A DNA stretch of 63,992 nt, the filler included, from Conidiobolus incongruus B7586 (lineage: Eukaryota), in the NCBI GenBank assembly GCA_000697335.1. It is 6 parts of 6 records of this genome, joined end to end, with 100 filler letters (N's around TTAATTAATTAA, not from the genome) between each part and the next. Parts side by side here need not be neighbours in the genome. Positions count along the whole stretch, not along the records: positions 1 to 21,083 come from JNEM01006106.1; 5 more parts are not named here. One strand, 5' to 3'. Below the pieces are notes generated by a model. That model did no database searches, had not been told where the DNA came from, and was given only the letters and a program-made list of their open reading frames with translations. The translations under genes and the position numbers were made by a program. Positions 1,241 to 62,552 of the stretch are shown in pieces. The first letter of the stretch is position 1; each line of letters begins with the position of its first letter.

Positions 1241-2277
1241 ATGTCGAGTGCTTCTAACAATACTAATTCATCAAGCGCTGCTAACTCCCCTAACCCTACT
1301 GTTAATAATAATGCGAAAAATACTATTCAAGTTAAATTGGTTTTATTAGGTATTAATAATGAATTTTCAATCCTAAATTACTTTTATTAATAATTATTTG
1401 AATTTTAGGAGAAGCTGCGGTTGGTAAATCTAGTGTAGCTTTACGTTTCGTTAATAAAGAATTTCAAGAGAATAAAGAACCTACTATTGGAGGTAAATTA
1501 TTTTTGAAAATTTTAATTTTTTTTTAATTCTAATTTTAAATTTATTTTAGCTGCCTTTTTAACTCAAAAATCTCCAGTTGGCGATAAAACTATTAAATAT
1601 GAAATTTGGGATACTGCCGGTCAAGAACGTTTTCACTCTTTAGCTCCTATGTACTATCGTAACGCTCAAGCCGCTGTAGTCGTTTATGATATTACTAAAA
1701 AGGTAGGGATGATGAATTTTTTTATTATTTAGATTTTTAAAGTTAATTATCAATTTAGGCTACTTTGGACAAGGCTATCGCTTGGATAAAGGAATTACAA
1801 CGTCAAGCTAATGGAAATATTGTGATTGCCTTATGTGGTAACAAATTAGATTTGGCAGATGAAATACAAGAAAATGAAGGTGAAGTTGAAGAAGGCCAAG
1901 AAGGAGGCGAAACAACTACCGCTCGCCAAGTCGCCACACAGGTTGGTGAGGAATGTGCCCGCGAATTTGGACTTTTATTCTTTGAAACTAGTGCCAAGAG
2001 TGGTCAAGGCATCAATGAAATGTTTACTGAAATAGGTAAATATAACTGTGACTTTGGTTCTTTTCTAGTATGAACTAACTTTACTTTTGTAGCCAAAAAA
2101 TTGCCCTTAGACTCCATTATTTCTTCCAGAAACCCATACCGCCCCAACCAACTCAACAGTGGTAACGGAAGAATTGATTTGTTGCGTGAATCGGGAGGTG
2201 CCGATTCCTTGAACGGATCTCGCGGCGATCGCGCCAACACCAGCAATGGTGGATTCAACCGTGGCGGATGCTGTTAA
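1241..2277 (+). CDS. VPS21: Rab5-family small GTPase (Vps21/Ypt5-like), 5 exons: 1241-1349, 1409-1492, 1551-1702, 1759-2035, 2093-2277
   Basis: Spliced translation gives [56 protein letters not shown] and a C-terminal GGCC prenylation motif. All four introns are GT-AG. Confidence 0.93.
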
Positions 2278-2764: not shown

Positions 2765-2911
2765 AGCGCTCGGTTTGGTCTTCTTCATCCATGCGCTTAC
2801 AATTAAACTTGTCCAAAGTTGATCAAATATGATCACTCTTATTCAAGTCCTGGATAAAGTTCAGAGATCCCGAGGGGTAAGCTCCAACAGCAATCCTGGA
2901 AGACTGGCTCA
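2765..2911 (-). ncRNA. Putative omegaRNA / right-end region of a Fanzor2 element
   Basis: GC-elevated segment directly after the Fanzor2 stop codon, with stems CAGTCT/GGATTG, GGAT/ATCC, GATCA-TATT-TGATC and AAGCGC...GCGCTT. The position matches the known TnpB/Fanzor guide-RNA location. Boundaries are inferred. Confidence 0.55.
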
Positions 2912-4640
2912 ACTGACTGTTAGATAGCGAAGGAGTATATTTCTAGCGATATTGATATCTTGATCTATCTCTACATGGCATTAAGAATACTTGAAAGTCC
3001 TACTTGATCCAAGTTATATAAACAAATATCCGCAATTACAGCATGCTTTATTTGTGTGATTCTTGTTACAAATAATTATCTTTTACCAAAAAGGTATTCT
3101 CTTGCTTTGCTGAGTAAGCTTTAATTTAATTTTGAATAACCTCACTTTAACCTTACTCTCATGCATTCACTCCAAATATATTTAATAATTTTTCTCACTA
3201 TCTTTTCAGTCTCAAATTCAGGATTCAAACCAATGTGATATTTTTAGGCAATTGATTTGGTAAGTTACTTATGAGCCTTATTAAAATGTTTTTAATTTTC
3301 TTTTTGATTCCTTTAGTTGTTCTGGTTATTTTATAGTGCTATTTATAATAATTTTCCTTCTAAAACTATTTGAATTATAATTTATTAGAAATATAATACA
3401 CTTAATAAATTTTATTAATATATCTTTTTCTTTATTAAATAAACAAACCAAAAAAGAGTAACTTATCATAAAATTTAATTAATGGGATAATAAGCCAAAA
3501 TTCTTTCTTTCATTGTACTTTACTTATAAGCTTGGTTATTCCTTTTAATTCATTAGCATTAAAATAAAATGATAGGATACACTGTGTAATAAGGACAAGG
3601 TATTATTATTGTTTAATTTATTAGTAGGGAAAGCTAGTATTGATTAACATTATTTAAATTTTCTTTTTATCCAAATATTGAGTAATTATATAATTTATAA
3701 AAACTATTTTTTATGTTTATTAAAGATTTTTATAAAAGAATAACCAAGTTTATTAAAATGAACATAGGATTTAATAATAAATTAAAGATAGTATTAAAGG
3801 TTTAAATATTTGATAGTGAATACATCAAACTAAGGATACAAGGCGTTATAATAATTGAATAGAGTATAATTGAGATAAATAAATTGAATATATTACAATT
3901 AACATTTACACCAAGCCTTGTCCTATGAAGGAGGCAAATATAATCATATTTTTCTGGAAATGGTTCTGCTACTTAGATTAGGTTATTATTAAGAAAAATA
4001 ACATGGAAAATATTTGATTTCTTTCAATATATTAGAGTGAATAATTATTAATTTTGATATCCTACTTTCTTTTTGTATTTAATTTTGACTGCTTTTATAC
4101 AATAAAATTAATTTTATATATTTTTGATAAATTATTAAAACTTGATCTGAAATATCAGAGGAAGTTAATATATATATTCGTTAATATTATAGATATAATT
4201 TGAAGTTAAATATTATCTTATCATTCTTATGAAATGTGAAATATAATATTTTTTATTTTTAATAAGAGATAGATAATGTTTTTCTTTTTGTCCCAAACAA
4301 TTATATCAATATTTTTCTTTTTTAACAGTTTAATAAAATTTAGATTCACTTTGTTCTTTTAATATTAATTATTAATTGTGTATTATATGCTTTATTTATT
4401 ACTTAGTTTTACCTAATATTGCCTCCCTTTGGTTGTCATAAAACAATTCTAATTTATAAAAAATTATTTTTTGGTTCATTTATTAAGTTATGTATGTAAT
4501 GTTTTGATTAAATATAATAATTCCATATTATTTTTTGAAGATCAATCCAGAGAGCTTAATTAATAATAGAAAACTAGTTTTTATCGGTAATGACAATATC
4601 AGAGATAATTTATTTGTATACCCAATATAATAATATTCAA
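2909..4640 (-). pseudogene. Decayed Fanzor2 (IS607 TnpB-like RuvC nuclease) gene with a ~330-bp interruption at ~3582-3909
   Basis: Collinear minus-strand motifs across frameshifts: KRTK*I*IL, I*LFGTKR, TSSDISDQ.FNNLSKIYKINF, IIIHS, AEPFPEKYDYICLLHRTRLG, ILAYYPIN*..FMISY (RuvC-I), KKKIKNI..KAHK*LTK, YHIGLNPEFETEKIVRK (RuvC-II), K*GYSKLN*SLLSKAREY, IIICNKNHTNKACCNCGY..LGSSRTFKYS*CHVEIDQDINIARNILLRYLT (Zn finger + RuvC-III). Confidence 0.88.
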
Positions 4641-4649
4641 AATATATAA

Positions 4650-5110
4650 TATTTGTTATTTAGTTTTAATTTGATATTTATGAATATTTTTAAGCAGAAT
4701 TAAATTTAAATTTCCCAGTCTTGTTTTTAGCATTTGAAATGACTCTTGCTTAATATGTCTCGTTTTTTTTTCGTAAATTGAATCAAGTGTTATATAATAT
4801 GAAAAATAAAACAAAGCCAAAATCCAGCTAAAGTTCATAGGACTTTAATATTTTCAGCTTTATCCCAATATCTAAGATTTTTATTAATATTCATATTTGG
4901 GGTTATATTTTGGATGCAGAAACATCGTCAGAATTATTTTATACAAATAATAGTGATATTGTGATTAGTGTTATAAAGTTTGTAATTAAATACTTGATAA
5001 AATGATATTTGAATATCTGTATTACAAATGAAATTTTGCCTAAACCCTTATTAAATATTGATAGGTATACTTAAACTCAAAGAGAATTCTGAAAATATTC
5101 CAGGTCAAAT
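4650..5110 (-). pseudogene. Decayed fragment of an unidentified multi-copy sequence, paralogous to ~570-720
   Basis: Shares TAAATACT.GA...TATCTGTATTACAA.TGA...GAAAAT..CCAGG with 570-720. The minus frame reads ...FICNTDIQI...NKNLRYWDKAENIKVL* with scattered stops. Confidence 0.35.
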
Positions 5111-6668
5111 TTAATAAATTTTTGACAATACTATTATACTTCCTGAGTAATATCTTTAGTTAATTTTTATAGATTTTCATTTGAGTAATATACATATTAT
5201 TGAAATTCAATTATTTATTATATACAAACTAGGTATAAATTAAATATAATTACTGATGTAATTGAATCATTATTTAAAATTAATTGATTTTGATATATTT
5301 GTTGATATTACATTTAATATAATAATTAATTATTATTCTTTCTAATTATAATTATTTACTCTTTTTTATATTTGACAAACAACATATCTATGTTTAATAT
5401 ATTTTGACATTGATCAATTATACTATATATTCAGTGGAGTTAATCAAATATGCATGTTTAGAAATAATTATGTAAAATGCTATTTATCAGTTGATTTAAT
5501 ACAAACATGTAATATGTAATAATTATCATTTATAGTTATAATCGATAATAAAATTTGATAGTTAAAAATCTATACGTCTACAAGTATTACAACATTTAAA
5601 AAGTTTATTCAAATACTAAAATAGTTAGAAATCTTTCATTGTTATATGTATAAAGCTAATGTTATTTAAAACTCTTTAGTTATATTTGAATGGGGCTATG
5701 ATATGATTTGGTTGGAAAAAAAGTCAAATAGTATTATAGAATCAAATATATTAAATTACAATAATCATAAATTTATTATAATATATTTATATACGCAAAA
5801 ATTTCAATATATTTATGATTTTGTTATTCATCATAGCTTCAATTCAAATAAAACTGTCTTATAAATTAGTTTGAAGGGTGTGGCTCTTGTTCTATGTAGC
5901 TACTATCCTTAAATCTCGTAATAGGCAAAATATATTTAAATTTTTTGATTTTTGAAGTATTATGGATTTGATATTTAGCTTGAAATAAAATATGATCCAT
6001 ATTCTTTTCTATATGTTTCTTAACAATTGTCATATTTGTTTTTAAAAGTTCATCCAAAATCAACATGTATAAGGTTATATAAATCTGAAAATTTTTGAAC
6101 TAAAAATTTATTTGATTACATTTAGAATTAATTATAATTTCAAAGATAACGAAATTATTTTTATAACCGAATTAGGTAATGGTATCATTTACATTAAAAT
6201 TGAATCAATCGACTATTTTAAATATATGAATCAGCAGTATTAAAATCTATAATGTTATAAATAGAAAAGATTAATAAAATATTTTAAAGTCTATATAAAT
6301 TCCGAGAATCAAATAGAAAAATATAATGTTTTAATGAATTGATAAAACGATTTTAAAAGCATGATAAATTATTAATATATCAAGCTTCAAAAATCAAAAT
6401 TTACTAAATTTACAACTCATCAACTAAATTAAGATCAATAGCCAATCATCGGGAAGAGTTACACTGATTTAAACTAAATGGATGATTTAAATTGATTGGT
6501 TCATTGTTCCCAATTCCTTAAAATATAAATTAAAGGGTATCCAGTCTTTATTTTCAAAATTGTGACATTATTAAAAATTTTTATTAACACAATTTTTAAT
6601 TATACAACTTACTAAAGACTGTTAAAGTACTTTAATATCCATTTTTGAACTTGAATTTGTTTTGAAAG

Positions 6669-8947
6669 ATGCCACCTAAAATTTCTAAATTGACCGATTT
6701 TTTACCAAATCAGAAGAAAACTATTGTAATTTCATAAAAAATTGAGTTTTGATAAAATTTTAATGCGATTGATAATTAGGTCAATGATAAATTAAAGAAT
6801 ACCTGCGATAACGAAATATCAAAAATTGGAGTGCCTATTAATTTAGATCATAAGGTAATCCTTTCAACTTTGTTTGGTTATATTTATCTCATGTTTTTTT
6901 CTCAGATTACTTCAACCGAAACTCTTGAAACTAACACCGTCGAAAAGCATAAAAATCAGTTAGAACTTCCAGTGTTGAGTCCAAAAAGAATTAGAACGTA
7001 ATGATATTATTCACTTTATTAAGCTTTTGCTAATAATTGTTAGTACTAGAACTCCTATTCCATTGAAAGCTAATGATAATGATCAGTTGAAACAAACCAG
7101 AATGAATGAGTATATTTTGAAAACGCCACAAAAGCAACCAATTAGTCCCAATCAAGTTAAAGTAAATGAGAATATTGTGGGTGATTCTCAAGAATCGGAA
7201 CTTAAGGTCAATGATAAGATCAATACTCAAGATAATCAGTAATTATATTTTTATTTATCATTCGTGATATATTTCTTATATAATATTATAGATCAACCGA
7301 TTCCGACTTTAATGAAACTGCTGAAGTCAAGTAAGTTGAATTATAAATATTTGATAATTAATCAAACTAATTCATATTCTAGACCTATTCCTGCATATAT
7401 CAAATATGCTCATTTATTAAATGATAAACCAATTCATAGAAGATATGAAGAGTAATTAACTCAAGATCATTTATATTCAAATACACTAACTAATAATTAG
7501 TGATGCATCACTCAGCAAAGTGACACCACCCCAACTTATCAGCGAAGGACCGAGAACCTTTTCAAGCACAATGCCAACCAAAAACACATTGCCAACCTTT
7601 CTAAAGTACAAGCATTTGACCAATTTAAAAGAAAAGAAAAGCTTGCCCAAACCATTCGAAATCCTCAAGCAAAATTTTAGTGCACTCAGCAATATTATCA
7701 TGTTCAATCAATCTAAGAATCAGAATGTCATTTTCCACAAAATTCAGAAAAGTGTTGAAATGATTTCTAAACACTCTTTCTCCGTGCTGCAGTTGGGTCA
7801 GCTCAAGTGGCTATTGGGAGATCATCTCATTTGCAAGCGTGTTGAGATTATTTATAAGGGTGAGAAAATCACCAGTTGGGAATTGAGTTTATTGGATCAT
7901 GCCAGTCAATCTGGAAACACTTGGACATCTAACCAGCCCTTTACTTCGCAAGTATCTACTGGACCTACTACAGGTCAATCTTTAGAATATTATTTAAAAG
8001 ATCGACTATTTAGCATCGTTAATGAATCTTATCAGGTATACTGTGAATACATTAGTATATCTTTCATATACTTATTAGAATTAATTAGGCTTTTTTAAAG
8101 AAAAATAATTTAACAGTTGAAAATGATAATGAATGGCATCCCAAATTTGATATCAATTCAGTGGATACTACCATTCCATCGCATCCAGAAATCAGTGGAA
8201 AGAAAGAAATCAACCCAACTATTCAGCCAAAGGTAATTCAACTATTCCTATTCTTTACTCTTTATTTAATCGAACTATTATTTGTTTAGGCTGAGGATTC
8301 GCCCTCCGATTTCCAAAAATTATTAAATTTAGCCAAATCATCTTCCAAATCCCAAATCAACTTAACTAGTAACGAAAATAAAAGCATGGCAACCAGTATT
8401 AAAGACAGGAAAGCAGCTTTATTGGAAAAAGTAATTCAAATCAATATTTATTTAATTACTAAATACTCATTAATTATGATAGATTCGAGCTAAACAAGCC
8501 AACAAGCAAAAAATACAAGAGAATTCATCAGGTGGTCTAAGTTCCAAAAAGATCATGATGATTGATCAATTATTAAATTTGATAAATTCTATTTATCTGT
8601 AAGTGTACCTTATTTGGTTTAATTGACTGAATATTAATAATATATTTAGTATTTTCCAAAATACTAAAGGAAGTCCTATCATGTTGGATAAGGTCGTCGA
8701 CAAATTGGTATCCACTCAGAATTGTAGACTGAACCAAGGTAAATTATATCATTCACCAAATTTAAACACTCATTAACCTTATTTAGTTGAAATGGTTGAA
8801 CATCTACGACTCTTGAAGGAATTGGTACCCGATTTCTGTACCATTGAACCTGTAATTCACTCCAATTCGGAAATTATGAAATTGAATTTAACTGTTGAGT
8901 TGAAGAAAGTTAAATTCACATTAAGTAACTATAAATCTAATTTTTAA
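6669..8947 (+). CDS. CDT1: DNA replication licensing factor Cdt1, multi-exon (5' exon structure approximate)
   Basis: LPKPFEILKQNFSALSNIIMFNQSKNQNVIFHKIQKSVEMISKHSFSVLQLGQLK resembles the Cdt1 middle winged-helix domain. A spliced RKAALLEK|IRAKQ matches the conserved LLERIRAKE motif. Ends ...TLSNYKSNF*. Confidence 0.8.
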
Positions 8948-19900: not shown

Positions 19901-20199
19901 AAAATAATTATTTGATGTTTTTAAATATACCAAATGTATTTTTAAAAATTTGATATATTTTTGATCTTAATAAGTTAATAATTTATTTTCAACATAGCCA
20001 TTGTGTTAAAAACTAATGATATCTAAGTATATTTATATTTTAATTTTGATTTAAATAATCTAATATATATTAATATTCAGATTTAAAAAATTAATATCAA
20101 TATTTTAGATTTGAAAATTAGGAAATAATTTAATTTCTGATTTTTCAAATAAATTATTAATTTGAAATAAATAAAAATTTACAAAGTTAATAGGATATT

Positions 20200-21083
20200 A
20201 TATATATATATATAATAATTTTTTTAATTAAAAAATTAACTTTTTAAAATTGGTTGTTTAAATTAATTATACTTAAACTAAATAATAATCATCAAAAGTC
20301 TTTTACTTTAATATTAGTAAAACTTAACTATATGTTTTTTAAAATTATTTAAAATTTACAAGCAACTTTTAATAATAAAGCATTATATAAATTAACAATT
20401 TATTGTTAGGTAAATTACTTTAAAGATAAGAGAAAAACTATCTAAAACCTGTTAAAATTTAAAAAACTAATTTTAACTATTATTTTTTTAATTATTAATA
20501 AAATGAAAAAATATATTGAAAAGTATCTTTTTATTTCAGCTAAAGAATTATCTAAGCACTTTAATATTAGCTTTATAAGTATTTTATATATATTAAAGTT
20601 TAAACTCAAATTAATAAATAAAAATATAAAATAGATACCTTATAATTTAATTAAAACTTAAAAAAAGCTAGAGTAAATATTATTAAACAAAACTTACTAA
20701 AATATTATTAAAAGCTTAAACTTTTACAGCAAATAATTATAATTAATTAATCTTAAATCTTTATATATAATCTTTTATTAAAACATAAATCAAAATGTTA
20801 GTTTATGTTAAATTAACCCTCTATATAAACTTTTTTAAATAAATATTTTATTAATAAGTAAATATTAATTATTATAATAAATTATAATAATATATGCTAT
20901 TGGTATTTAATTTATAAAAGAAAATCAATTAATAATTAACTTTATATTGTTTTTTTAAATAAAAGTATTTTTAATTAGTGTTTTTAATATAATTTGAAAA
21001 AACCTATTATTTTATATAATAATTATAAAATACATAAATCTAAAGTTATAAAAAACTTTCTAATTAAAAATAACTAGAAAAAA
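20200..21083 (+). mobile_element. Mariner-family transposase relic, hypermutated, cut by a contig spacer
   Basis: Reads K*IPYNL..T*K.ARVNI (WVPHEL motif), QIIIIN*S*IFIYN (first catalytic D region) and ILYNNYKIHKSK (HDNARPH-like). The departures from consensus are largely explained by C>T/G>A changes. Confidence 0.72.
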
Positions 21084-21183
21084 NNNNNNNNNNNNNNNNN
21101 NNNNNNNNNNNNNNNNNNNNNNNNNNNTTAATTAATTAANNNNNNNNNNNNNNNNNNNNNNNNNNNNNNNNNNNNNNNNNNNN
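21084..21183. other. Artificial contig-joining spacer
   Basis: 44 N + TTAATTAATTAA (stops in all six frames) + 44 N. The identical structure occurs five times. Confidence 0.97.
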
Positions 21184-27731: not shown

Positions 27732-30700
27732 TTATTGACCTTGTAAAGCTTGGTCGATACAATAATTCACGTAATCTTTGCGATAGGTCATATCCACTCC
27801 GAAAATTCGTGTCAACTCATCTCTGACTTGCTTTTTGGTGATATTCATGAGGTCAGCTTGACCTAAGATGCGCTTGACCTCGCGCTGGATTTCCGCATCA
27901 GAGGGACCGTTGGCGGGTGGGGAGAGGGGTACAAACATCATCGGAGAGGCAGATCGCGAGGGGGCTTCTGAGAAGTGGGAGATGGGACGCATGCTATGGC
28001 TTTGAAGCGGCTGCATCTGGAATGATTGGTTCATTCGGGAGTAGCGAGGTTCGGGCATGGCGATGGGGCTGCGAGTGTCCAAGAAAGATTGGTTGAGTGC
28101 CATGCGACTGCCAGCTCTCGAACTGGCTCTGGAGTCAGGACGATTGGGAGCATTGTAGCGCAATCCACTGTGCATCTGACTCAAATCATTAGCACTCAAT
28201 ATGGGCGGTGTCGTAGGTTCTTTGTACACTTGGAAAGGGTTCTTGGCATCGAACAGGGTACCTCCAGTCTTGTTGGTAGCGTGACTGCGCTTACTGCCGA
28301 AAGAATGTTCAGAGCCATTCTCCCAGATTTCTTCCTCGTATTCGGACCACTTCTTGACGGGAATACTCTTGGGATCGAATTTGCCTTCGTCAACCGCTAC
28401 AACCTTCTTCTTCTTACCATTGTCGCCAACCACGAGACGAGTGTTACCCCAACTGAAGTCATCGAAGTGCCAAAAGGAGTAGATGGGGATACAGAATGCG
28501 AACACTGGCAAGGCTAAAATATAGATGATCATCCAACCAATATGTTCCCATTTACGACGCAAAATAAACACCAGGATTTGGAGTGCATACGGGGCAACAA
28601 TCAAACAAATTGAAGTAATTGGCAGCGTGTTGGGAGATGTAGCAATTGTGTAGAATAAGAAACCTAGTACGAACAAGGTAGCAGGCATCACCACGGTTGA
28701 CAATAAATCCATAAAGACGACGAAACGCATTGAGAAGCAGCAGAAACCACACAATCTTGGTAGAAATACCAATTCTAAGAGGTTATGGACGGTAGAGTTA
28801 ATCCATCTACGTCTCTGGGACAACAAGACACTCCAAGTGTCGGGAGCAACAGTCAAACATTTGGCATCGGACGTAAAGGTCATCTTAAAGAATGGGAAGT
28901 GCTTCAACATGAGAGTGGTGAGGTAACGATCTTCACCTAAATGCAACAAGTTCTTCTTGTGCAAAGTATCTACCACATTTTCGGAATAATCTTTGACTAC
29001 TGCATTATTCACCAAGAGGGCAACATTCTTATTAGGAGCTCGAATGCGATACATACAGAAACAACCAGGTAAACAGGTGACGGTACCGAACAAGGATTCG
29101 AAAGATTTGGCCAAATGGTGAGAGATGAAATATTCGTAAACTTGGATCATAGTAGCCCAGGAATCGCGTTCGTTTTCCAGAGCGGTTTCACCACAAATAC
29201 CCATAATCTTAGTATCGTGGACCATTGCAGAGATAAGTCGGTTGAGAGAGTCAGGTAATACCAAAGTATCGGCATCCACCATTAAAATGTATTCGTACAG
29301 ATGGGGATCCACACCAATCACATTCTTGATTTGGTGGTACATTTCGAGTTCGAGAGGTGTCATGGGGTAGTCATAATGCACCTTGTTGAAAAACTTCATC
29401 AAGATCAATTGTGAATCACGCTTACCTCTGTTACCGGGTCTGGCTCTTTCGGAGGGGCGACCCACTTTGACGACGACAATGTAGGGAACAACGTGAGCTT
29501 GACACTCGTAGAGACCGGTGTACACTTTACCCATATTGTGCTGTTTCATGCCTTCGCCAAGCGAGTGGTAACTCAAGGGTTCGGGCTGCAAATTAGCATC
29601 AGAGCCCAAAATATCCAATACAATTCTGGGAGTTGGGAATTCGTTACCACCACCAACGATCATACCGTCACAAATGATGAATAAGAGCTTGCGTTTGTCG
29701 TCGTACTTCAAAGTGGTGAGAGAATCGATAGTCTTTCTCAGAGAATCTTCACCTTCGGTATAACATGGTACGTTACAGATAACGAATTGGTCGTGATCTT
29801 CGGGATCGGGCTTGGATCCAAAGTTCAAGGAAGCCAAGAATTTAGCCAGGAGGATCAGAAAGATGAAGACGGAGAGTGCGAGTAACACATAAGATGAGAA
29901 CATACATTGGAAGGAGTTACGAGTATCTAAAACACCTATGTAGAACAAATTCTTTAAGCATACTTTGGTATACCTTTCAATCTCTGAATTTTCTTTGAAC
30001 AATTTTTCGAACAGTTCCGTCAAATCTCTACCCCTATTATTCCTAACTATATTTTCAATATCTTCATGCATAAATTTCTTTGCTTCGTTATCCGGTCGAT
30101 TTTCGGGATTCCCCAAAAACTTTAGAGAGCCGTCCCAATACTTGGTCATATCGTAAACGTCGTCCTTGTAGATGAAAATATCGCGATTGCTTGATCTCGC
30201 TTTAATCACGCTGGCATCCCAAGCCACATCTGCGACCTTGAGCATCTTGTCCATCATACCAACTACTGCCCTGTAGTAATCCTTCATGTATTTTTCACCC
30301 CCCGTGTAGTAGCGATGATCGTGAAATTTAGCCCATCTCTGGTTGCCCACCAAATCAGGAGTTTGTGTAGTATTTTGGAAGTTGAGATAAGGGTCAATTT
30401 CGCTACCGTCCCACTTGTTGCAAAGTTCACTGATTTGCATAGGGAAAAGGTCCGAAATATCAGTACCTCCGCCTAACAGCTTGTGAAGTGGTTTTCCCTG
30501 TAATGCTATGTTGACAGCGGGTGGATGGAAATTGGGGTTCTTGGCGAGGTTGTAAACACGTCCAAATGCGTACATGTATTGATATTTGTTCTGGTTCGCG
30601 TTGTAGTATTCTTCGACTTCAGGAACGCTGAGCACTTCTTGCTTAGGACAAATCAATGGATTAATACCGATGATAAAGAGAACCATACCAGCACACATGA

Positions 30701-33495
30701 GGAAAATAATGGTACATAGGGCGACCTTTTCACGCCATGCCATCCTGACGTCGCGGTGCTTCATGCGGCAACAGCAGGACAGCACAAAAGAGGGGATCCA
30801 CCAGGTCAAGAGCCATGTGAAGCATACCCAAGCCTTACGAGTTTTAGTCTTTGGAGGTTTTTCATCGACTTCTTCCTCTTCCTCAGCCTCGATGACTTTC
30901 AACTGGTTTTCGGCACGTGTGAGCTGCAAATCATCTTCGGGACCTTCCGCAGTACTTTCCAAATCTACCACGCTTTGGTCGTCGCCATTACGATCATCAT
31001 CGCTGTAGTAGGACTGTGCATCGTCGGCAATAAATCCAGGCTTCGGCAAATCCCCAAGAGCACTCATGTTGTTGCGGGCATTCTCGCGCTCGGATGCTCT
31101 CAAATGATCTTCAAGATCTCTCCAAACTTCGTCGCTAAGGTAACAGAATTGGTTCCCGATTGCGACGTGTTCTGGTCCCCAGCCGAAGATGTTGACGACC
31201 GCATCGCAAATTTGACGTGGAGTGCGATTGGCATCGATACCGAGAGGCTCTAACACCTGAATGTATCTGGCAACTAACTCGTCGTGCTGGTAGCAAACCG
31301 TGTACTCAATCTCCTTACGCTGGGCCATATTTGGCAAACTGTAGCGATCGACTTGGTCCCCAATAGTGCCGGCGTCGAATTGGTCAGGAACGTTGGAAGT
31401 GTTGGCCCTCATACAAATCACGAACCAAGGTTCGGTATTGTCGAAAGTATCGAAAATTTCGTCCAAAGCCAATTGGAATTGGGTAGCTTTACAGGCGATC
31501 TTGTTCTTGGACGTCGTGGTTTCGATCTTTTCGTCGGCAGGATTGCTGGTGTCCGTTCTGTCGCGCTTCATGCTCGGTTTACGCACGGGCATCGCTGGTA
31601 CAGAGGCGGCTACGATGTTTTGAGTATTTTGGGGATGTGATTCGGTAGCGACTGCTCCACTGGTGAATAAACCAGCGACGAAGGGATTACCCACGGGAAC
31701 CCCGGCATCACCACGGAATGTGGAAACGAAATCAGTACAGATGGAATCCATATTCTTGTCCATAAAGCCGGAAGTGTTATAGGTAACGGGAGCGGCGAAG
31801 TGACGTACGGTAAACTCTCCCATATTGAGATTGGCGCTGAAGTATTCGGAGCCGGCATGATGTTTGTGAAGGGCAGCTAACATACCAGGATCGTTGTTGG
31901 GACCTCTTGGCTTGTTGGCTTGCTTGTGCAAAATGGAAATGATACCTGATCCAGATTTGCCCAATAATGAAGTAACAGGCTGGTTGTTGATGTAGGGAAT
32001 GATAGGGATAGCGACGTTATCTTCGGCGTAAGCGTCGTTACTAGCTTCGAAGATTTGGTAGCACATGTAATTGTACAGTCTTTCGTTAGCATAATTGGTG
32101 CAAAATTGTTCGAATCCGTTACCGTTGGGATTCACCTGGAAGCCTGGTAAATCTAATAAACCAATGAAGTTGGCTTGATTGTCTTTACACAAACGGATGT
32201 TCATATATTCAATAATCCAAGAGAATAGCAAGGAGTAAAGAACTTTAGCCAAATCATCTCTTTGGACAACAGACTGAGCAGCATCCAAATACACGGTACA
32301 CAATTCCTTCTTAATCAACTTGGTCTTGTAAGTGAGCAAAGATTCCAATGTACTGGGTAATAAACCCAAGAAGTCCGCAACGATATTCAACACCTCCTCA
32401 TTCTTGACACAGGCAGCTTCCTGACTCTGTCCTACCTGATTAGCGAAAGTAATATTACCCAAATGCAAAATGGCAGCTAAAACTTGGAAGATTTGACTCT
32501 GCGACTTGCGATTGAAGCCTAAATCCTTCAAATTCTTCTTAAGCTCTTGGAACTGGTGCGACAATTCGCTAGGATTGTAAGGTGTTAAAGTACCTTGAAG
32601 GTAATGGAAGTGACCAGCTTCCTGAAGTTGGAAATGAGCTTTCTCTTCGATGCTCATTCCTCCTAACATCTGGTAAAATACGAAGAAATTGGATTCGTTG
32701 CGAGGCACTGCAGTAACCCTTGTCTTTTCGAGGATGTAGTCCAAGCATTTCACACCGATGGTTCGACCCTTGGCATCGAATTGAAGTTCAATATACTTAC
32801 CGAACCTGCTGGCATTGGTGTGAGTTACAGTGGAAGCGTGGCCGAAACTCTCGAAAATGCGTTCACCATTCAAGATCTGTTGGTAAAGTTTGGCTTCCTT
32901 CTTGGATCTTGACCTCAGTGCCATCAACTGAGTCACGAAGTGACGTTGCGTTAACGTTTTACCACTTCCGCTCTCTCCCCTAAATTAGATGAATTAGTAT
33001 CATTTATATCAATTCATTCAATTATATCAATGTCTCATTTTGACAATTAAAAGAGTGGAAAAAATGGACCAATCAATATCCTTCAAATTAACCGCAATTT
33101 TTAGAAATAATAAAGACACAATTAGCTTACATAAATACAACACTCTGATCAATTCCACTACGCTTCAAATGAAAGTAAATCGTATTTACCAATCCGAAGA
33201 TATGCGCCTCCAACCTCTCTCTACCTTCCGAAATATTTCGATAATTTTCGACATATCTCAACTGGACATCTTCTTCGTGATCTCTGGTATCTTTACATGG
33301 GTTAATACTCAATAGGACACGGTCTCCAACCCTCGTATAATATTTTTCGAGCGCATATCTCTGTTGTAATAGGTTTACAACGCTTGTTTTCGTTTTTTGA
33401 TTGAGGAATATTAAATCACCGGATTGATCATTTGTTGAGGTTGAACTCAGATCTTCCGTGGATTGTAAAGGTTTGGCGACCATTCGAGTCGTCAT
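27732..33495 (-). CDS. Class V chitin synthase with myosin motor-like domain (~1870 aa); exons 33495-33131 and 32979-27732
   Basis: Spliced P-loop GESGSGKT, NASRFGKY and DLPGF switch motifs, cytochrome b5-like region, GEDRYL and QRRRW catalytic motifs, and a DEK_C-type C-terminus (DLMNITKKQVR). Confidence 0.97.
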
Positions 33496-37961: not shown

Positions 37962-38061
37962 NNNNNNNNNNNNNNNNNNNNNNNNNNNNNNNNNNNNNNN
38001 NNNNNTTAATTAATTAANNNNNNNNNNNNNNNNNNNNNNNNNNNNNNNNNNNNNNNNNNNN
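37962..38061. other. Artificial contig-joining spacer
   Basis: 44 N + TTAATTAATTAA + 44 N. Confidence 0.97.
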
Positions 38062-50789: not shown

Positions 50790-50889
50790 NNNNNNNNNNN
50801 NNNNNNNNNNNNNNNNNNNNNNNNNNNNNNNNNTTAATTAATTAANNNNNNNNNNNNNNNNNNNNNNNNNNNNNNNNNNNNNNNNNNNN
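50790..50889. other. Artificial contig-joining spacer
   Basis: 44 N + TTAATTAATTAA + 44 N. Confidence 0.97.
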
Positions 50890-51607: not shown

Positions 51608-54600
51608 TAGTAGCAATAACAAAACTGTTAAAAACCTACTAGAAATTAATAACTATTTGTATCTAACCTATCTATTACTATTTTAAATCTTATTTATAAT
51701 TTATTTCATTTAAATTTAATACTATACACTATAATACTACTAAAAAAAAAGATACCCTTATATTATTTTAATAATGATAATAGCTTAATTACTAAGTGAA
51801 TTTAAGACTTTAGTCTTTAAAAACTTACTACCCTTTAAGAAGCTTATATTAGACAACTTTTGATTGAAAAAAACATGTTTCAAAGAGCTTAAATCTAATA
51901 AACCAGTTATTTTACTATAGTTAATGCATTAAACTACCTCTTTAGTGTTTTTAAAAACAAATTAACTATTTATGATAGCTTAAAAAACCTTTACAAGCTT
52001 GAAAACTACTTTAAAAACATAAAGAATTACCTTAATTTAATTCTTGATGAAGATCTAAAGAATATCCTTAAATTAGCCACTTTTTTTGGAAAAATCTGTT
52101 TATATTTGGTAGTTAACTCATTATAAACTTAATCCTAAAGAATTTTCAAGAGGATAACCTACTATAAAGATATAAACTTTTAAATAATTGGAAAAAACCC
52201 TTAAAGAAAGGTATTACCTAAAAGATTAAGTTTAATTAACAAGAGAAAAACTTTCCCAGCTTAAATAAAAAACTTCTACAAGGTAATTGATTGAGAAATT
52301 TAATGAGATATGTTTAAATATATTAAATATCACTGAAGAAGAATAAATCCACAAACTATTATAATACCTTAATTTTTAAGTAAAGCTTTAATTAGTTAGT
52401 AAGGAACACTTTAATAATATGTCTTTTTCTAACATTTGTGATATAGCAATTATAATTCATAATATCTTTTACTTTATAATTAAATCTTTTTACCTTAAAA
52501 ATCAATTTTTTAAACTTTACTTTAACCCACTTAAGTTTCAAATGATAAATGTTTCTGCTTTAAAGCTTTATAAGAAAACCTTTAGTGAAAAAGTTAAAGC
52601 CTACTTAAAAGTAAACAAAGGTTGTTATTACTACCAAAAAACTTAAGTTAACTATAAAGCTAACAAATATCCTTTTAGGAAACAACACCAATCTAATTCT
52701 CAACAATCTTAATTTGCTAACTATAAATCAAACTTGAATAATATTAATATAACCTTAGAATCACCCTTTTTACAATTAGTTAGTAGATTCTAATTTAATC
52801 TACAAAAGTTTTAATAAACTAATAATTCCACAAATTAAACTATGTATACTAGAGAAATCCAACTAATTAAACCACTAGAAACTAAAAATATTATAGTAAC
52901 TAATCTACCTTATAATTTTTTACCTTTAACTATCACTTTATTGTTTGTGTTAACTAGTTCTTTTATAGATATACTTGTTAGTGTTTTAATTAACTCTAGT
53001 TGTTTTAGTTATATTATCTCTTCTTTTATTGTTATAAAGCTATTTTTACCTACCTAAAAAAACAACTTAATAATTAAATATACTAACAATTTAATAGAAC
53101 AAGCATCTGGTACTGTATTTAGATACTTATTATTACCCCCTAACTATTCCCAATATATTAAATTTTTAGTTAGCAACATTAGTTATAATTTTATACTAGG
53201 TTAAAATTAGTTTGAATATCACAGTTTTATAACTATAAATATTACCCTAGAAGGTTACAAATCTATTTTTTTCACATTCTAAAAAAAATTAGTAGAATTA
53301 ATCTCAAAAAATCTACATTACCCTATTATAAAACTATTAAATTCTTTACCTAACACTAATTTTACAATTGTAGCAAATAATTCTATTATTATAAGTAAAA
53401 ATCAATATAAAAAGCTAATCAAAAACTTAAATAATCTATAGGGATATATATTTGTTTATTATTCATCTATCAACACTTTATTTGTTGATTTTAATAAAGT
53501 TATATCTAATAACCACTTTCTATACAATATAGTGAGTTAATTTACTAATGTTTTTGAATCTATAAATAAATTACCACCTAAATATAATATTAAACACAAA
53601 ATTAAACTAATCCCTAGTACACAACTATACTTAAAGTTTACTTACTATTTACCTCTTAAACAATACTAAACCTTAAAAGAAGAAATTTAAAAACTACTTG
53701 AAAATAGTTATATTAAACCTTTTTCCTTACTATAAAAATCTCTAATCTTCTTTATACAAAAAGCTGATGGTGGTTAAAAACTATATATTGATAACTATAT
53801 TTTAAACTTTAAAACTATTAAGGATAAAACTCTATTATTAAACCTATATGATGTTAAAGATAAACTACTTAAATCAACTATATTTACCAAATTAAATGTT
53901 AAGAATAGATATTACAACATTAAAGTTAAAGAAAACTCTATCCTTTTAACTATTTTCAATACTTTTTTAAGCTACTATAAATTTACTGTTATGAACTTTA
54001 AATTATGTAATGCTCTTGTAACTTTTACTTAATTTATTAATTCCCTTTTTAACCTTATCTTTAATAACTTTATTATTACTTACTTTAATAATATCCTAAT
54101 CTATTCAAAAACTAAAAAAGAATATATTTAACATGTTAATTAAGTTTTATAAATTATTCAAGAATATAAATTACCTTTAAAACTATCAAAATATATCTTT
54201 AATACCTCTTCTATCTTTTTTTGTGGTTATATTATTTCCTTTTAAAAAATTAGTATTGATCTAACTAAACTTAATGGTGTTAAAGCTTTTATTATACTTA
54301 TAAACAAAGATCAATTTATGTTTATACTTAGATTATTAAATTACTTTAAAAATTTCATTGATTCTTTTACTAAACTTATTATTTTTCTTACTAATCTCTT
54401 GAAGAAAAACTCTTTTTTTGAATAAACCCTACTATATACTTTCTATATAAATGTTTTAATTTTCTATATTACCAATGCTTTTGCTTTATTTATCTTTAAT
54501 CTAAAACTACCTACCATTATTTTTACTAACTCTAGTTTTTTTATAATTGGTAGATAGTTAGCTTAGTTTAAATTTAATTTATATTTTACCCTACAGCTAT

Positions 54601-56523
54601 AAGATAAAATAATAAATAAAAGAGAATAGGTTAAGTTTAACTTTACAAATGTTACTTTAAAACCAATAATATTCTGGTTAAAAAAAATAAAACTAGCTGA
54701 ATTAAAATACCTAGTTTATAAATAAAAACTCTTTGCTTTAGTAAAAATAATCAAAAATCACTTACATTTCTTATCTTGTAATTTTTTTTTAGTACTTACA
54801 AATCACAAATCACTTATCTATTTAAATACTCAGAAATATTTATTAAGAAAATAAATTAGATAGATTAAAACTATCTAAGCTTATCTTTTCTTTATTTAAT
54901 ATCTCTTAGGTTAATAAAACTATATTGTAGATACTTTGTTAAAAAATCTTATATACCTACCCTTTTATTCTAATTGTAAAAATCTAGCAAATATTAACTT
55001 AATGATTATTAATAAAAGAAATAAAAAATTTATTAAACTACTTTAAGAAACACTGTTAAATAATAATTTCTTTATTTTAGTTAAAGAAGAACTCTTTAAA
55101 CCATTAGAAAACTAACTAAAATATGTTAAAAGATTTAAAATTATCAATAACTTACTATATTATAATAATTGTCTATATATTCCTGATATTCCTAAGATTT
55201 AACAAACAATATTTAATGAATGCTATAACTTATTTGTTAGAGGACATCAAAACTAGTTAAAGATTACTAAGAGAATTAAAACAAAGTACTACTAGCTTTC
55301 CCTAATCAAATTAGTTTAGAAATACACTAATACTTGTGATATATGCTAAAGAATTAAATATAATACTCAACTAAAATATAGTAAACTTATTCTTTTACAA
55401 GTCCCTAATAAAATTTAGCAATAAATCCAGCTTAATTTCATAGAAATCCTTAAATCAACAAATAGTTATAATAACTTACTAATTGTAATTGATTTATTTT
55501 CCAAATATGTTTATTTTATTCTTTATTTCAAAACTTTTATAGCTAAAGATGTTGCATAATTATTATTCTCTAATATTTTTACCTACTATAAAATTCCACA
55601 AACTATTATATTTGATAGAAACACACAATTCAACTTTTGATTTTAGAAGTTACTATCCTTTTCCTTTAAGATTAACCTAGCTATGTTTACTACCAATCAT
55701 CACTAAACTAATAAACTTGCTGAAAAAACTATCAAAACCTTAAAGTAAATCATTAAAGCTTATATTAACACTAATTAGTTAAATTAAGATGCTTATATCT
55801 ACTAACTCTAATATTTATTCAACACCTTTATTAATAGATCAATAGGTTTTAACCTTTATTTTATTAATTATAGTAAATATCCTAACTTAATAATTACTCT
55901 AAAACTTTAAATCAACTTATCTTTAGACATTGTTGAATTTTAATCTAATATCAAATATATCAATTCTCTTGTTAAATTTAACTTAGAAGTAAATTAAAAG
56001 ATTATAGAACAACAATACTCAAAGTTATCTAGAAACCCTCTTAAATATAAAACTAGTATGTTTGTATACTTAGAATAATTTGCCCTTAAACCTACCCTAC
56101 TTAAATCTAGCTTAAATCCCAAATACTTACCATTATATTATAGTCCCTATAAAATTTAATCTATTGATTTAAATTTTGAAAATATTACTTTAGAATTACC
56201 TCTAACTTTGAGGATTAACCCTACCTTTTATATATCTAAAATTAAACTATACTTTGAAGATTTTAACACTTTTCCTAATTAATTAAAAACCCCAAAACTA
56301 GATCCAATTATTAATTAAGATAGAGAAGAAAAATACTATGTTAATTACATAATTAAGTCTAAATTTATTAGGAATAAACTTTATTTTGATGTAAAATGGA
56401 TAGGTTATCTTATTAAAAAAGCTATATAGGAACCTCTAGAAAATATTAAGAATACTTTAGCCTATTATATATATTTGTAAAAAATTAGGGAGTGTGTCTC
56501 TTTTAAAAAACTTACTAGGGGAG

Positions 56524-56921
56524 TATTAAGAGACTAGTTCTTTAAATTCTTATATACACTTTCATAAAATCCAATTAACTATAAATTATATAATTAATTT
56601 ATACTTATATAGTTAAATTAATTGTATAAATAGTATTAAATTATCTAATAAACAAGGTTTTTCTTTTTCTTCTTAATTCTTACTATTTTTACTTTTACAT
56701 TATTTCTAAAATTGAGACTATATTCTATTAATATTATAGGATATTAGCACTACCTAATATAAATCTTAATATATTAGTGACTCACCCTAGTTTGAAGCTT
56801 AATTAAACTTTGTTTACACTTGCACACTATAGCCACATTATATTACTATGTTTTACACCACACTACTTTTATATTAAGTCTTCCTCTACACTATATTAGT
56901 TTAACTACCACTACATTTACA
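56524..56921 (+). repeat. 3' LTR (398 bp; TA..CA)
   Basis: Preceded by a polypurine tract and followed by the TSD AATAT. Confidence 0.95.
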
Positions 56922-56926
56922 AATAT

Positions 56927-57400
56927 AACAAGTTAATTTGCTAATATTTTTAAACTTATAAATAAATTAATATTCAAATATAATATTAAATATAAAATCA
57001 AATTTTTTTAATATATAATTATATTTAAAGTTTATTTATTATCTATCTCTTAAATAATATTAAATCTTAAAAGGAGAAATTTAAAAATTTATTAAAAATA
57101 AATATATTAAATTTTTTTCCTTATTATAGAAATCACTTATTTTCATTATATAAAAGGTTAATAATAGTTAAGAATTATATATCAATAACTATATTTTAAA
57201 ATTTAAAACTATTAAGATTAAAACTTTATTATTAAACTTATATGATATTAAAGATAAATTACTTAAATCAATTATATTCATTAAATTAAATATTAAAAAT
57301 AGATATTCTATTATTAAAGTTAAAGAAAATTTCTTTTAATTATTTTTAATATTTTATTAAGCTATTATAAATTTACTATTATAAATTTAGATTATATAAT
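56927..57400 (+). mobile_element. Older Gypsy copy, right part (RT region) of the interrupted host element
   Basis: Aligns to the inner element from ~53531 to ~54010, resuming where 50890-51209 stops. Confidence 0.85.
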
Positions 57401-57500
57401 NNNNNNNNNNNNNNNNNNNNNNNNNNNNNNNNNNNNNNNNNNNNTTAATTAATTAANNNNNNNNNNNNNNNNNNNNNNNNNNNNNNNNNNNNNNNNNNNN
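57401..57500. other. Artificial contig-joining spacer
   Basis: 44 N + TTAATTAATTAA + 44 N. Confidence 0.97.
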
Positions 57501-62452: not shown

Positions 62453-62552
62453 NNNNNNNNNNNNNNNNNNNNNNNNNNNNNNNNNNNNNNNNNNNNTTAA
62501 TTAATTAANNNNNNNNNNNNNNNNNNNNNNNNNNNNNNNNNNNNNNNNNNNN
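62453..62552. other. Artificial contig-joining spacer
   Basis: 44 N + TTAATTAATTAA + 44 N. Confidence 0.97.

Follow-up and report, generated by a model that had tools for sequence, protein, structure and literature searches.

A decayed Fanzor2 element, probably of IS607 type, with a predicted omegaRNA right end in an entomophthoralean fungus

The minus strand of a 63,992-nucleotide stretch of Conidiobolus incongruus B7586 DNA (assembly GCA_000697335.1; the window, meaning the whole of the DNA analysed) carries a decayed, collinear Fanzor2 gene at about 2909–4630. We consider it very probable that this gene belongs to an IS607-type transposon copy, now dead, with a predicted omegaRNA right end and a likely TnpA, and that the copy dates from a burst of transposition long ago in an entomophthoralean fungus. 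A collinear broken gene lacking two catalytic residues is observed together with a right end that recurs in unrelated flanks and a predicted pseudoknot whose strands covary in relatives. The original prediction had placed a Fanzor2 fossil at 2909–4640; the gene is there, but the element is larger. It occupies 2794–5063 of the minus strand and adds a right end at 2794–2915 and a likely TnpA remnant at about 4430–4940; the right end is fixed at 2794 and the left end lies at least at about 5030.

In the six-frame translation the minus-strand motifs follow the Fanzor order: LSLP-K-T (about 4590–4575), LFGT (about 4300–4289), EPFPEKYDY and RTRLG (about 3966–3910), ILAYYP (3501–3484), PEFET (3222–3208) and DQDIN (2965–2951). 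A comparison with TnpB/Fanzor domain models, which had been proposed as a check, succeeded in part: one raw frame, with stops read as X, matched Pfam PF07282 (E 1.1e-5; 25.9 bits, just below the cut-off of 26.3), but HTH_OrfB_IS605 and OrfB_IS605 found no match on the raw frames. The same frames gave no match in NCBIfam and nothing firm in the PDB. A profile of 123 homologues recovered four collinear minus-strand pieces over 2903–4095 (E 2e-22, 8e-8, 6e-4 and 0.035), the top piece in the rest of the window reaching just E 0.2. The frameshift-aware alignment that had also been suggested scored 121 bits, where the best of 30 shuffles reached 24.6, and the reading of the region as a Fanzor2 fossil is upheld, with its motifs in place and in order.

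With lenient scoring, this alignment reaches about 4620. The remnants of the HTH/REC and WED regions (3912–4400) score 54.8 bits (0/300 shuffles), and that of the N-terminal motif (4520–4630) was equalled by two of 300. In searches confined to the expected intervals, the HTH-WED and RuvC-I blocks exceeded 300/300 shuffles and the N-terminal motif 298/300. When 3340–5600 was searched freely with strict scores, WED alone of the five N-terminal blocks exceeded all 60 shuffles, the other four being equalled or exceeded by 7, 9, 26 and 48 of 60. Because these four fail the free search, the 5′ half of the relic is detectable through collinearity alone. A DNA-level comparison of the element with 238 related loci gave AT-rich noise among the matches listed.

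A protein search with the 3′ coding end of the relic returned six proteins among 18 candidates (lengths 320–1021, from a collection that may not include the proteins of this genome). The best of these, P0004, is 55% identical; it contains PF12323, PF01385 and PF07282 and has 1682 relatives at E<=1e-20. Its best solved relative is ApmFz2 (PDB 9b0l), at E 2e-23 by direct search and 8e-53 with a profile. A search for a viral locus with P0004 alone found none. In the tree, the relic groups with P0004 and its kin (SH-aLRT 95) and the cyanobacterial pro-Fanzors are separate; the row for the relic was read with a profile from the same proteins, its branch is long (1.54) and its composition odd. This places it with Fanzor2 and not with Fanzor1 or ordinary TnpB, in a tree that contains no Fanzor1 row. 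By sequence, the relic appears nearest to a large intact Fanzor2 subfamily, for which ApmFz2 is the best relative of solved structure.

The gene contains 25 stops and ten frameshifts over 374 aligned positions, in addition to a 329-nucleotide insertion, and retains 54 of 112 highly conserved columns; the better preservation of the 3′ end (21/34, against 33/78 for the rest) is too weak a contrast to build on. In the segment from RuvC-I to RuvC-II (3141–3582), the Asp of the DPG motif has become Tyr (3489–3487), as had been claimed from ILAYYP, and the motif reads Y-P followed by a frameshift (3489–3482), at about 3482, with which the Gly is gone as well. DPG is present in 123/123 intact homologues; its loss is therefore a matter of decay of this copy and not of the family. 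The predicted Pro at the canonical RuvC-II position is confirmed by the PEF at 3222–3214, which lacks the canonical Glu; the Pro-x-Phe pattern occurs in 120 of the 123 homologues.

The shifted catalytic Glu had been assigned to PEFET. This is incorrect, because in Fanzors the alternative Glu precedes the zinc finger by six residues (available sections of PMC10711439), and the corresponding site, at 3062–3064, now encodes Lys (AAG, read from 3064 to 3062), one transition away from Glu. The residue is Glu467 in ApmFz2 (available sections of PMC11832414), and as E536 it is invariant in 38/38 long homologues. The remaining part (2909–3140) comprises the end of RuvC-II, the C4 zinc finger and RuvC-III. 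The zinc finger is present as predicted, within the PF07282 match, but one of its four Cys, the third, is now Tyr (2989). The RuvC-III Asp (2959–2957) is retained within DQDIN, in agreement with the prediction, with Gln in place of the Arg of DRD. Two of the three catalytic residues are thus lost, and the description of the copy as dead holds.

The insertion (3583–3911) is AT-rich and interrupts the WED region. The original prediction does not mention it. It has intron-like ends, a GT start and a CAG end, and a branch-like ACTAAT at 3625, but it is also flanked by GTGTA direct repeats; neither intron reading yields a clean frame (computed and by eye), and no high contig depth was seen over it in the sibling data. 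A perfect nine-nucleotide inverted repeat (3592–3600 and 3916–3924) has one arm inside the insertion, close to its far end, and the other in the coding flank, and might be the mark of a template switch.

The right end, with the predicted omegaRNA scaffold (2794–2915, minus strand), has a GC content of 0.43, compared with 0.18–0.30 in the remaining element. 3′ of the gene it is arranged as in the intact relatives, where a small G-C hairpin is followed by a stem region that varies and then by a T-rich run; the run closes with GCG, as do 17 of the 22 rows aligned. Similar right ends occur in L012, L019 and L021, among other relatives that carry TnpA. The hairpin lies at 2874–2885; its innermost pair is broken in this copy and restored in most of the sibling depth (2883). 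The hairpin loop (2882–2877) would form the 5′ strand of a pseudoknot with the terminal bases of the element (2795–2800), which are its perfect six-base complement. In an alignment of 21 loci picked by eye from 35 listed, with the structure drawn from the sequence of the window, the loop and the last bases form a mean of 5.1 pairs compared with 3.4 in permuted pairs (0/10000), and all six pair here. Covariation is 0.60 compared with 0.25 (0/500), slid controls giving at most 0.21, and 36 cells are altered on both sides compared with 12 in shuffles. Taken by itself, the omegaRNA region is not significantly more stable in its fold than shuffles of it (z -1.57), and an Rfam search of it matched no family of such kind. 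A pseudoknot between a hairpin and the element end is known for TnpB and Fanzor2 omegaRNAs from the available sections of PMC11832414 and PMC10711439, and we predict that this right end is an omegaRNA-type 3′ end with a covarying pseudoknot of that sort.

Dispersal is evident from sequencing run X1, in which 31 other contigs (7 + 8 + 9 + 7) start at 2794–2797 and continue into unrelated AT-rich flanks (agreement 0.53–0.54). The summed contig depth is 1239 at position 2829, whereas the contig that carries this copy has 14.8. Run X4, from the same sample, gives the same multi-copy picture of the right end, and runs X5 and X7 gave short unrelated matches only. Of seven runs listed, four contain this DNA, all from a single sample, and no RNA run is among them; the sibling evidence comes from contigs of that sample, possibly the source of the window, with an identity floor of 80%. 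The scatter of the starts would fit decay of terminal CG sites. The claim of a once-mobile Fanzor2 family in this lineage is supported by the 31 sibling right ends in unrelated flanks. The seven sibling pieces among the matches listed differ at 22–32 positions per 117–184 bases (about 81–86% alike), on contigs at single-copy depth, and transitions make up 22 of the 25 differences from the sibling majority; the family therefore looks old. Three contigs join the right end (2835–2860) to 4832–5000 with the middle unplaced, so the upstream part is also common to siblings. Among the siblings no intact copy appeared, and no close intact protein among the 18 candidates, so that the hope of intact siblings that could be put to use finds no support. 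RIP, which is discussed for this fungal order (available sections of PMC11105155), was rejected as the cause of decay on a negative composite index (-0.38 over 2916–4940).

Upstream of the gene, a faint remnant of an IS607 TnpA is likely at 4430–4940 of the minus strand, with a MerR-type HTH at about 4876, a catalytic ARVIS at about 4760–4745 and a second motif at about 4605–4575; in intact relatives TnpA belongs to the resolvase family (PF00239). Its position and frame match those of the relatives, and the N-terminal Fanzor2 motif lies in the +1 frame relative to it. Its score was reached by one of 300 shuffles, but by 48–50 of 96 other tiles of the window, and for this reason we grade it as likely and no higher. 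A candidate left-end region (4965–5063) just upstream of the remnant has a 74% copy in the same orientation at 578–674 (E 3e-10). The copy at 578–674 of this direct repeat of about 100 nucleotides lies upstream of a Rab gene and is perhaps a lone left end; a second TnpA remnant was sought beside it and none was found, 31 of 200 shuffles scoring as high. None of the 25 longest inverted repeats listed links the right end to sequence upstream, and neither the left end nor, in consequence, a TAM was found.

The overlap of the two frames recurs in the intact relatives. Among 238 loci (L001–L238; 144 that lacked one gene by motif filters were left out), the nuclease frame is open in +1 across most of tnpA in 82 of 84 distinct two-gene loci, with a median overlap of 566–740 nucleotides; these are metagenomic, viral and cyanobacterial elements. 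No +1 stop occurs in 114 of 119 distinct TnpA cores, and among representatives below 60% identity 37 of 39 are open, compared with 4.6 expected when the synonymous codons of each gene are shuffled. One TnpA Val column uses GTG in 87/87 and reads as Trp in +1. In up to 26 of 85 loci the TnpA frame has decayed, and there the nuclease still keeps its N-terminal motif. Residues 60–91 of ApmFz2 contain motifs similar by eye, including Asn82 and Ser83, which contact the pseudoknot (available sections of PMC11832414). The correspondence of the N-terminal motif to RuvC-R is a by-eye likeness, because an N-terminal-motif profile of 35 sequences did not retrieve 9b0l at E<=10 and a long profile aligned ApmFz2 60–91 out of register.

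Three relatives that look intact and eukaryotic contain an AT-rich GT-AG intron of 65–73 nucleotides, with a TACTAAC branch, within the dual-coded stretch (L005:618–682, L008:823–895 and L059:1981–2045). Its removal opens both a TnpA frame of 282–288 residues and a nuclease frame of 532–628 residues. Introns in Fanzors as such are already known (available sections of PMC10530073); one intron serving both the tnpA and the Fanzor2 frames is new. On dual coding, the available parts of PMC10711439, PMC10432273, PMC10530073, PMC11832414 and PMC3627910, and likewise of PMC13565253, PMC10691335, PMC9956272, PMC4058570 and PMC3673617, contain only the general remark that IS607 ORFs overlap. We lean somewhat towards a fuller account in which a complete IS607/Fanzor2 element, with the nuclease N-terminus overprinted on tnpA in +1, entered an entomophthoralean nucleus, transposed at least 30 times and gained an intron; in its living relatives L005, L008 and L059 one spliceosomal intron opens both frames, and one spliced mRNA would encode transposase and nuclease. 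Dual coding and the two-frame intron, which concern the family, are of more interest than the fossil itself.

The element lies in nuclear fungal DNA. The genes on both sides of it are fungal and intron-rich, and one contig spans 2799–6658 without a difference. A Ras-family gene with introns (1241–2277, plus strand), which from its motifs we take to be Rab5-like, converges on the element, whose right end is 517 bases away. On the minus strand at 27732–32984, a single open frame of 1750 codons encodes a myosin-motor chitin synthase whose best named relatives are just 60% identical and to which two other proteins are 71–77% identical. In a tree of 29 rows drawn from 120 hits, this chitin synthase groups with these two proteins and then, with 100/100 support, with Neoconidiobolus and Massospora, which makes the host one of the Entomophthoromycotina. 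In the Fanzor supplements of PMC10432273 (bar one picture file) and PMC10711439, none of the entomophthoralean genera searched for appears and control genera are present; a Fanzor2 in Entomophthoromycotina thus represents a lineage not in the two published Fanzor tables. Our literature search found no Fanzor report for this group; bioRxiv supplements, Repbase and ISfinder lay outside it and may hold records.

Other features of the window were recorded in passing. Parts of the Rab gene (1326–1640) and of a gene at about 6880–7700 (6990–7500) are matched at about 90% by other contigs of the same sample at ordinary depth, which suggests paralogues or a duplicated block. A weak Rfam U6 match on the minus strand at 2302–2354 (21.7 bits, gathering score 44) is probably due to chance. 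Further decayed repeats may lie in two very AT-rich tracts (20001–21000 and 54100–57300; composite RIP index 0.40 and 0.61), the second of which also has a strong GC skew. Five gaps, each with 12 bases flanked on either side by 44 N, lie at 21084–21183, 37962–38061, 50790–50889, 57401–57500 and 62453–62552.

By analogy with the family of the element, TnpA would have released it in circular form; insertion would have taken place, without target duplication, at a matching dinucleotide, of which CG is the probable identity in view of the conserved terminal GCG. TnpA excision and dinucleotide insertion without duplication are described in the available sections of PMC4058570 and PMC10711439. A transcript through the right end would yield the omegaRNA, with its guide taken from the flank, and Fanzor2 would cut the empty site, so that repair restores the element, as described for such cutting in the available sections of PMC13565253. 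An old burst in the entomophthoralean fungus would then have been followed by decay, mainly by C-to-T and G-to-A changes, until this copy yields no nuclease.

How the right ends multiplied admits another reading, to which we give a clear minority of our confidence: one or a few full-length elements may have mobilised, in trans, many short, non-autonomous copies with the omegaRNA only, like the ghost loci of Saito et al. Depth is high at 2794–2997 only and near background along the ORF, and the contigs that join the right end to 4832–5000 with the middle unplaced suit such copies. Sibling pieces nevertheless extend to 2977–3008, inside the coding end, and six further joints link patches within the ORF (2948–3206 to 3091–4295), as from diverged long copies; all joints give ends only, and the 80% identity floor hides older ORF sequence. 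We also think it improbable that a non-IS607 eukaryotic transposon with TIRs and TSDs captured the gene (Fanzor2*), the TnpA-like traces being a shadow of the ancestry of the N-terminal motif. Such elements exist (available sections of PMC10711439), the TnpA remnant is weak and many relatives retain the N-terminal motif beside a decayed TnpA frame (the 26 of 85 loci cited above); against this, the TnpA-like motifs stand upstream of the N-terminal motif in correct order and spacing, the right end matches those of the TnpA-bearing relatives and the listed inverted repeats include none that pairs it with the upstream region.

It is similarly doubtful that the family still lives, with an intact Fanzor2 and omegaRNA in some other copy. 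The pseudoknot and right end are well preserved here, and the window holds one copy of many, with 177 further pieces beyond those listed; yet the siblings listed are unique as well as diverged, and the 18 candidate proteins, within the limits of their collection, include no close intact one. That the motifs are chance, or the relic of an unrelated zinc-finger gene in AT-rich spacer DNA, has a negligible probability. The sub-threshold Pfam score and the failure of most 5′ blocks in the free search would allow it, but it is refuted by the profile (E 2e-22 and further collinear pieces), by the alignment (121 bits against 24.6) and by an independent omegaRNA grammar at a multi-copy right end. The IS607-type copy from an old burst remains the best explanation.

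The relic extends the range of Fanzor2/IS607 elements to Entomophthoromycotina. This copy is inert and no enzyme will therefore come from it; the tool value lies in the intact relatives (the 1682 proteins noted above), a large subfamily from which any new editor would come and whose short omegaRNA grammar the right end defines. Compared with ApmFz2 of the IS607EU Fanzor2 elements (available sections of PMC11832414 and PMC10530073), the relic shares the domain order NTD-HTH/REC-WED-RuvC-ZnF-RuvC-III, the RuvC-II Pro-x-Phe and a predicted 3′ omegaRNA whose pseudoknot would reach the final bases of the element; it differs in being dead, in its nuclear fungal host, in a predicted omegaRNA of about 120 nucleotides compared with a scaffold of 205, and in a terminal GCG compared with a GGG TAM context. 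The Fanzor2 proteins of Rhizophagus, in Glomeromycotina (CAB5365895.1 and GET01997.1, FZ2 in PMC10432273 supplement 3; CAB4385202.1, PMC10711439 Table S2), resemble it in subfamily motifs, compared by eye, in an early-diverging fungal host and in partial decay, but belong to another subphylum; the two in the table of Saito et al. are filed there as FZ2. The pro-Fanzors of cyanobacteria, which are IS607 TnpB proteins that have both DPG and the alternative Glu (available sections of PMC10711439), share the TnpA association, the +1 overlap and the catalytic signature with the intact relatives of the relic, but form a separate clade at 35–39% to P0004. The IS607-like fragments that Gilbert and Cordaux reported from eukaryotes (2013; available sections of PMC3673617) are likewise decayed pieces in nuclear genomes, and they lack TIRs and TSDs; in those sections no Zoopagomycota are among the hosts and transposition was not demonstrable, whereas here the 31 right ends in unrelated flanks are direct evidence for many transpositions of such an element in the nucleus of a fungus.
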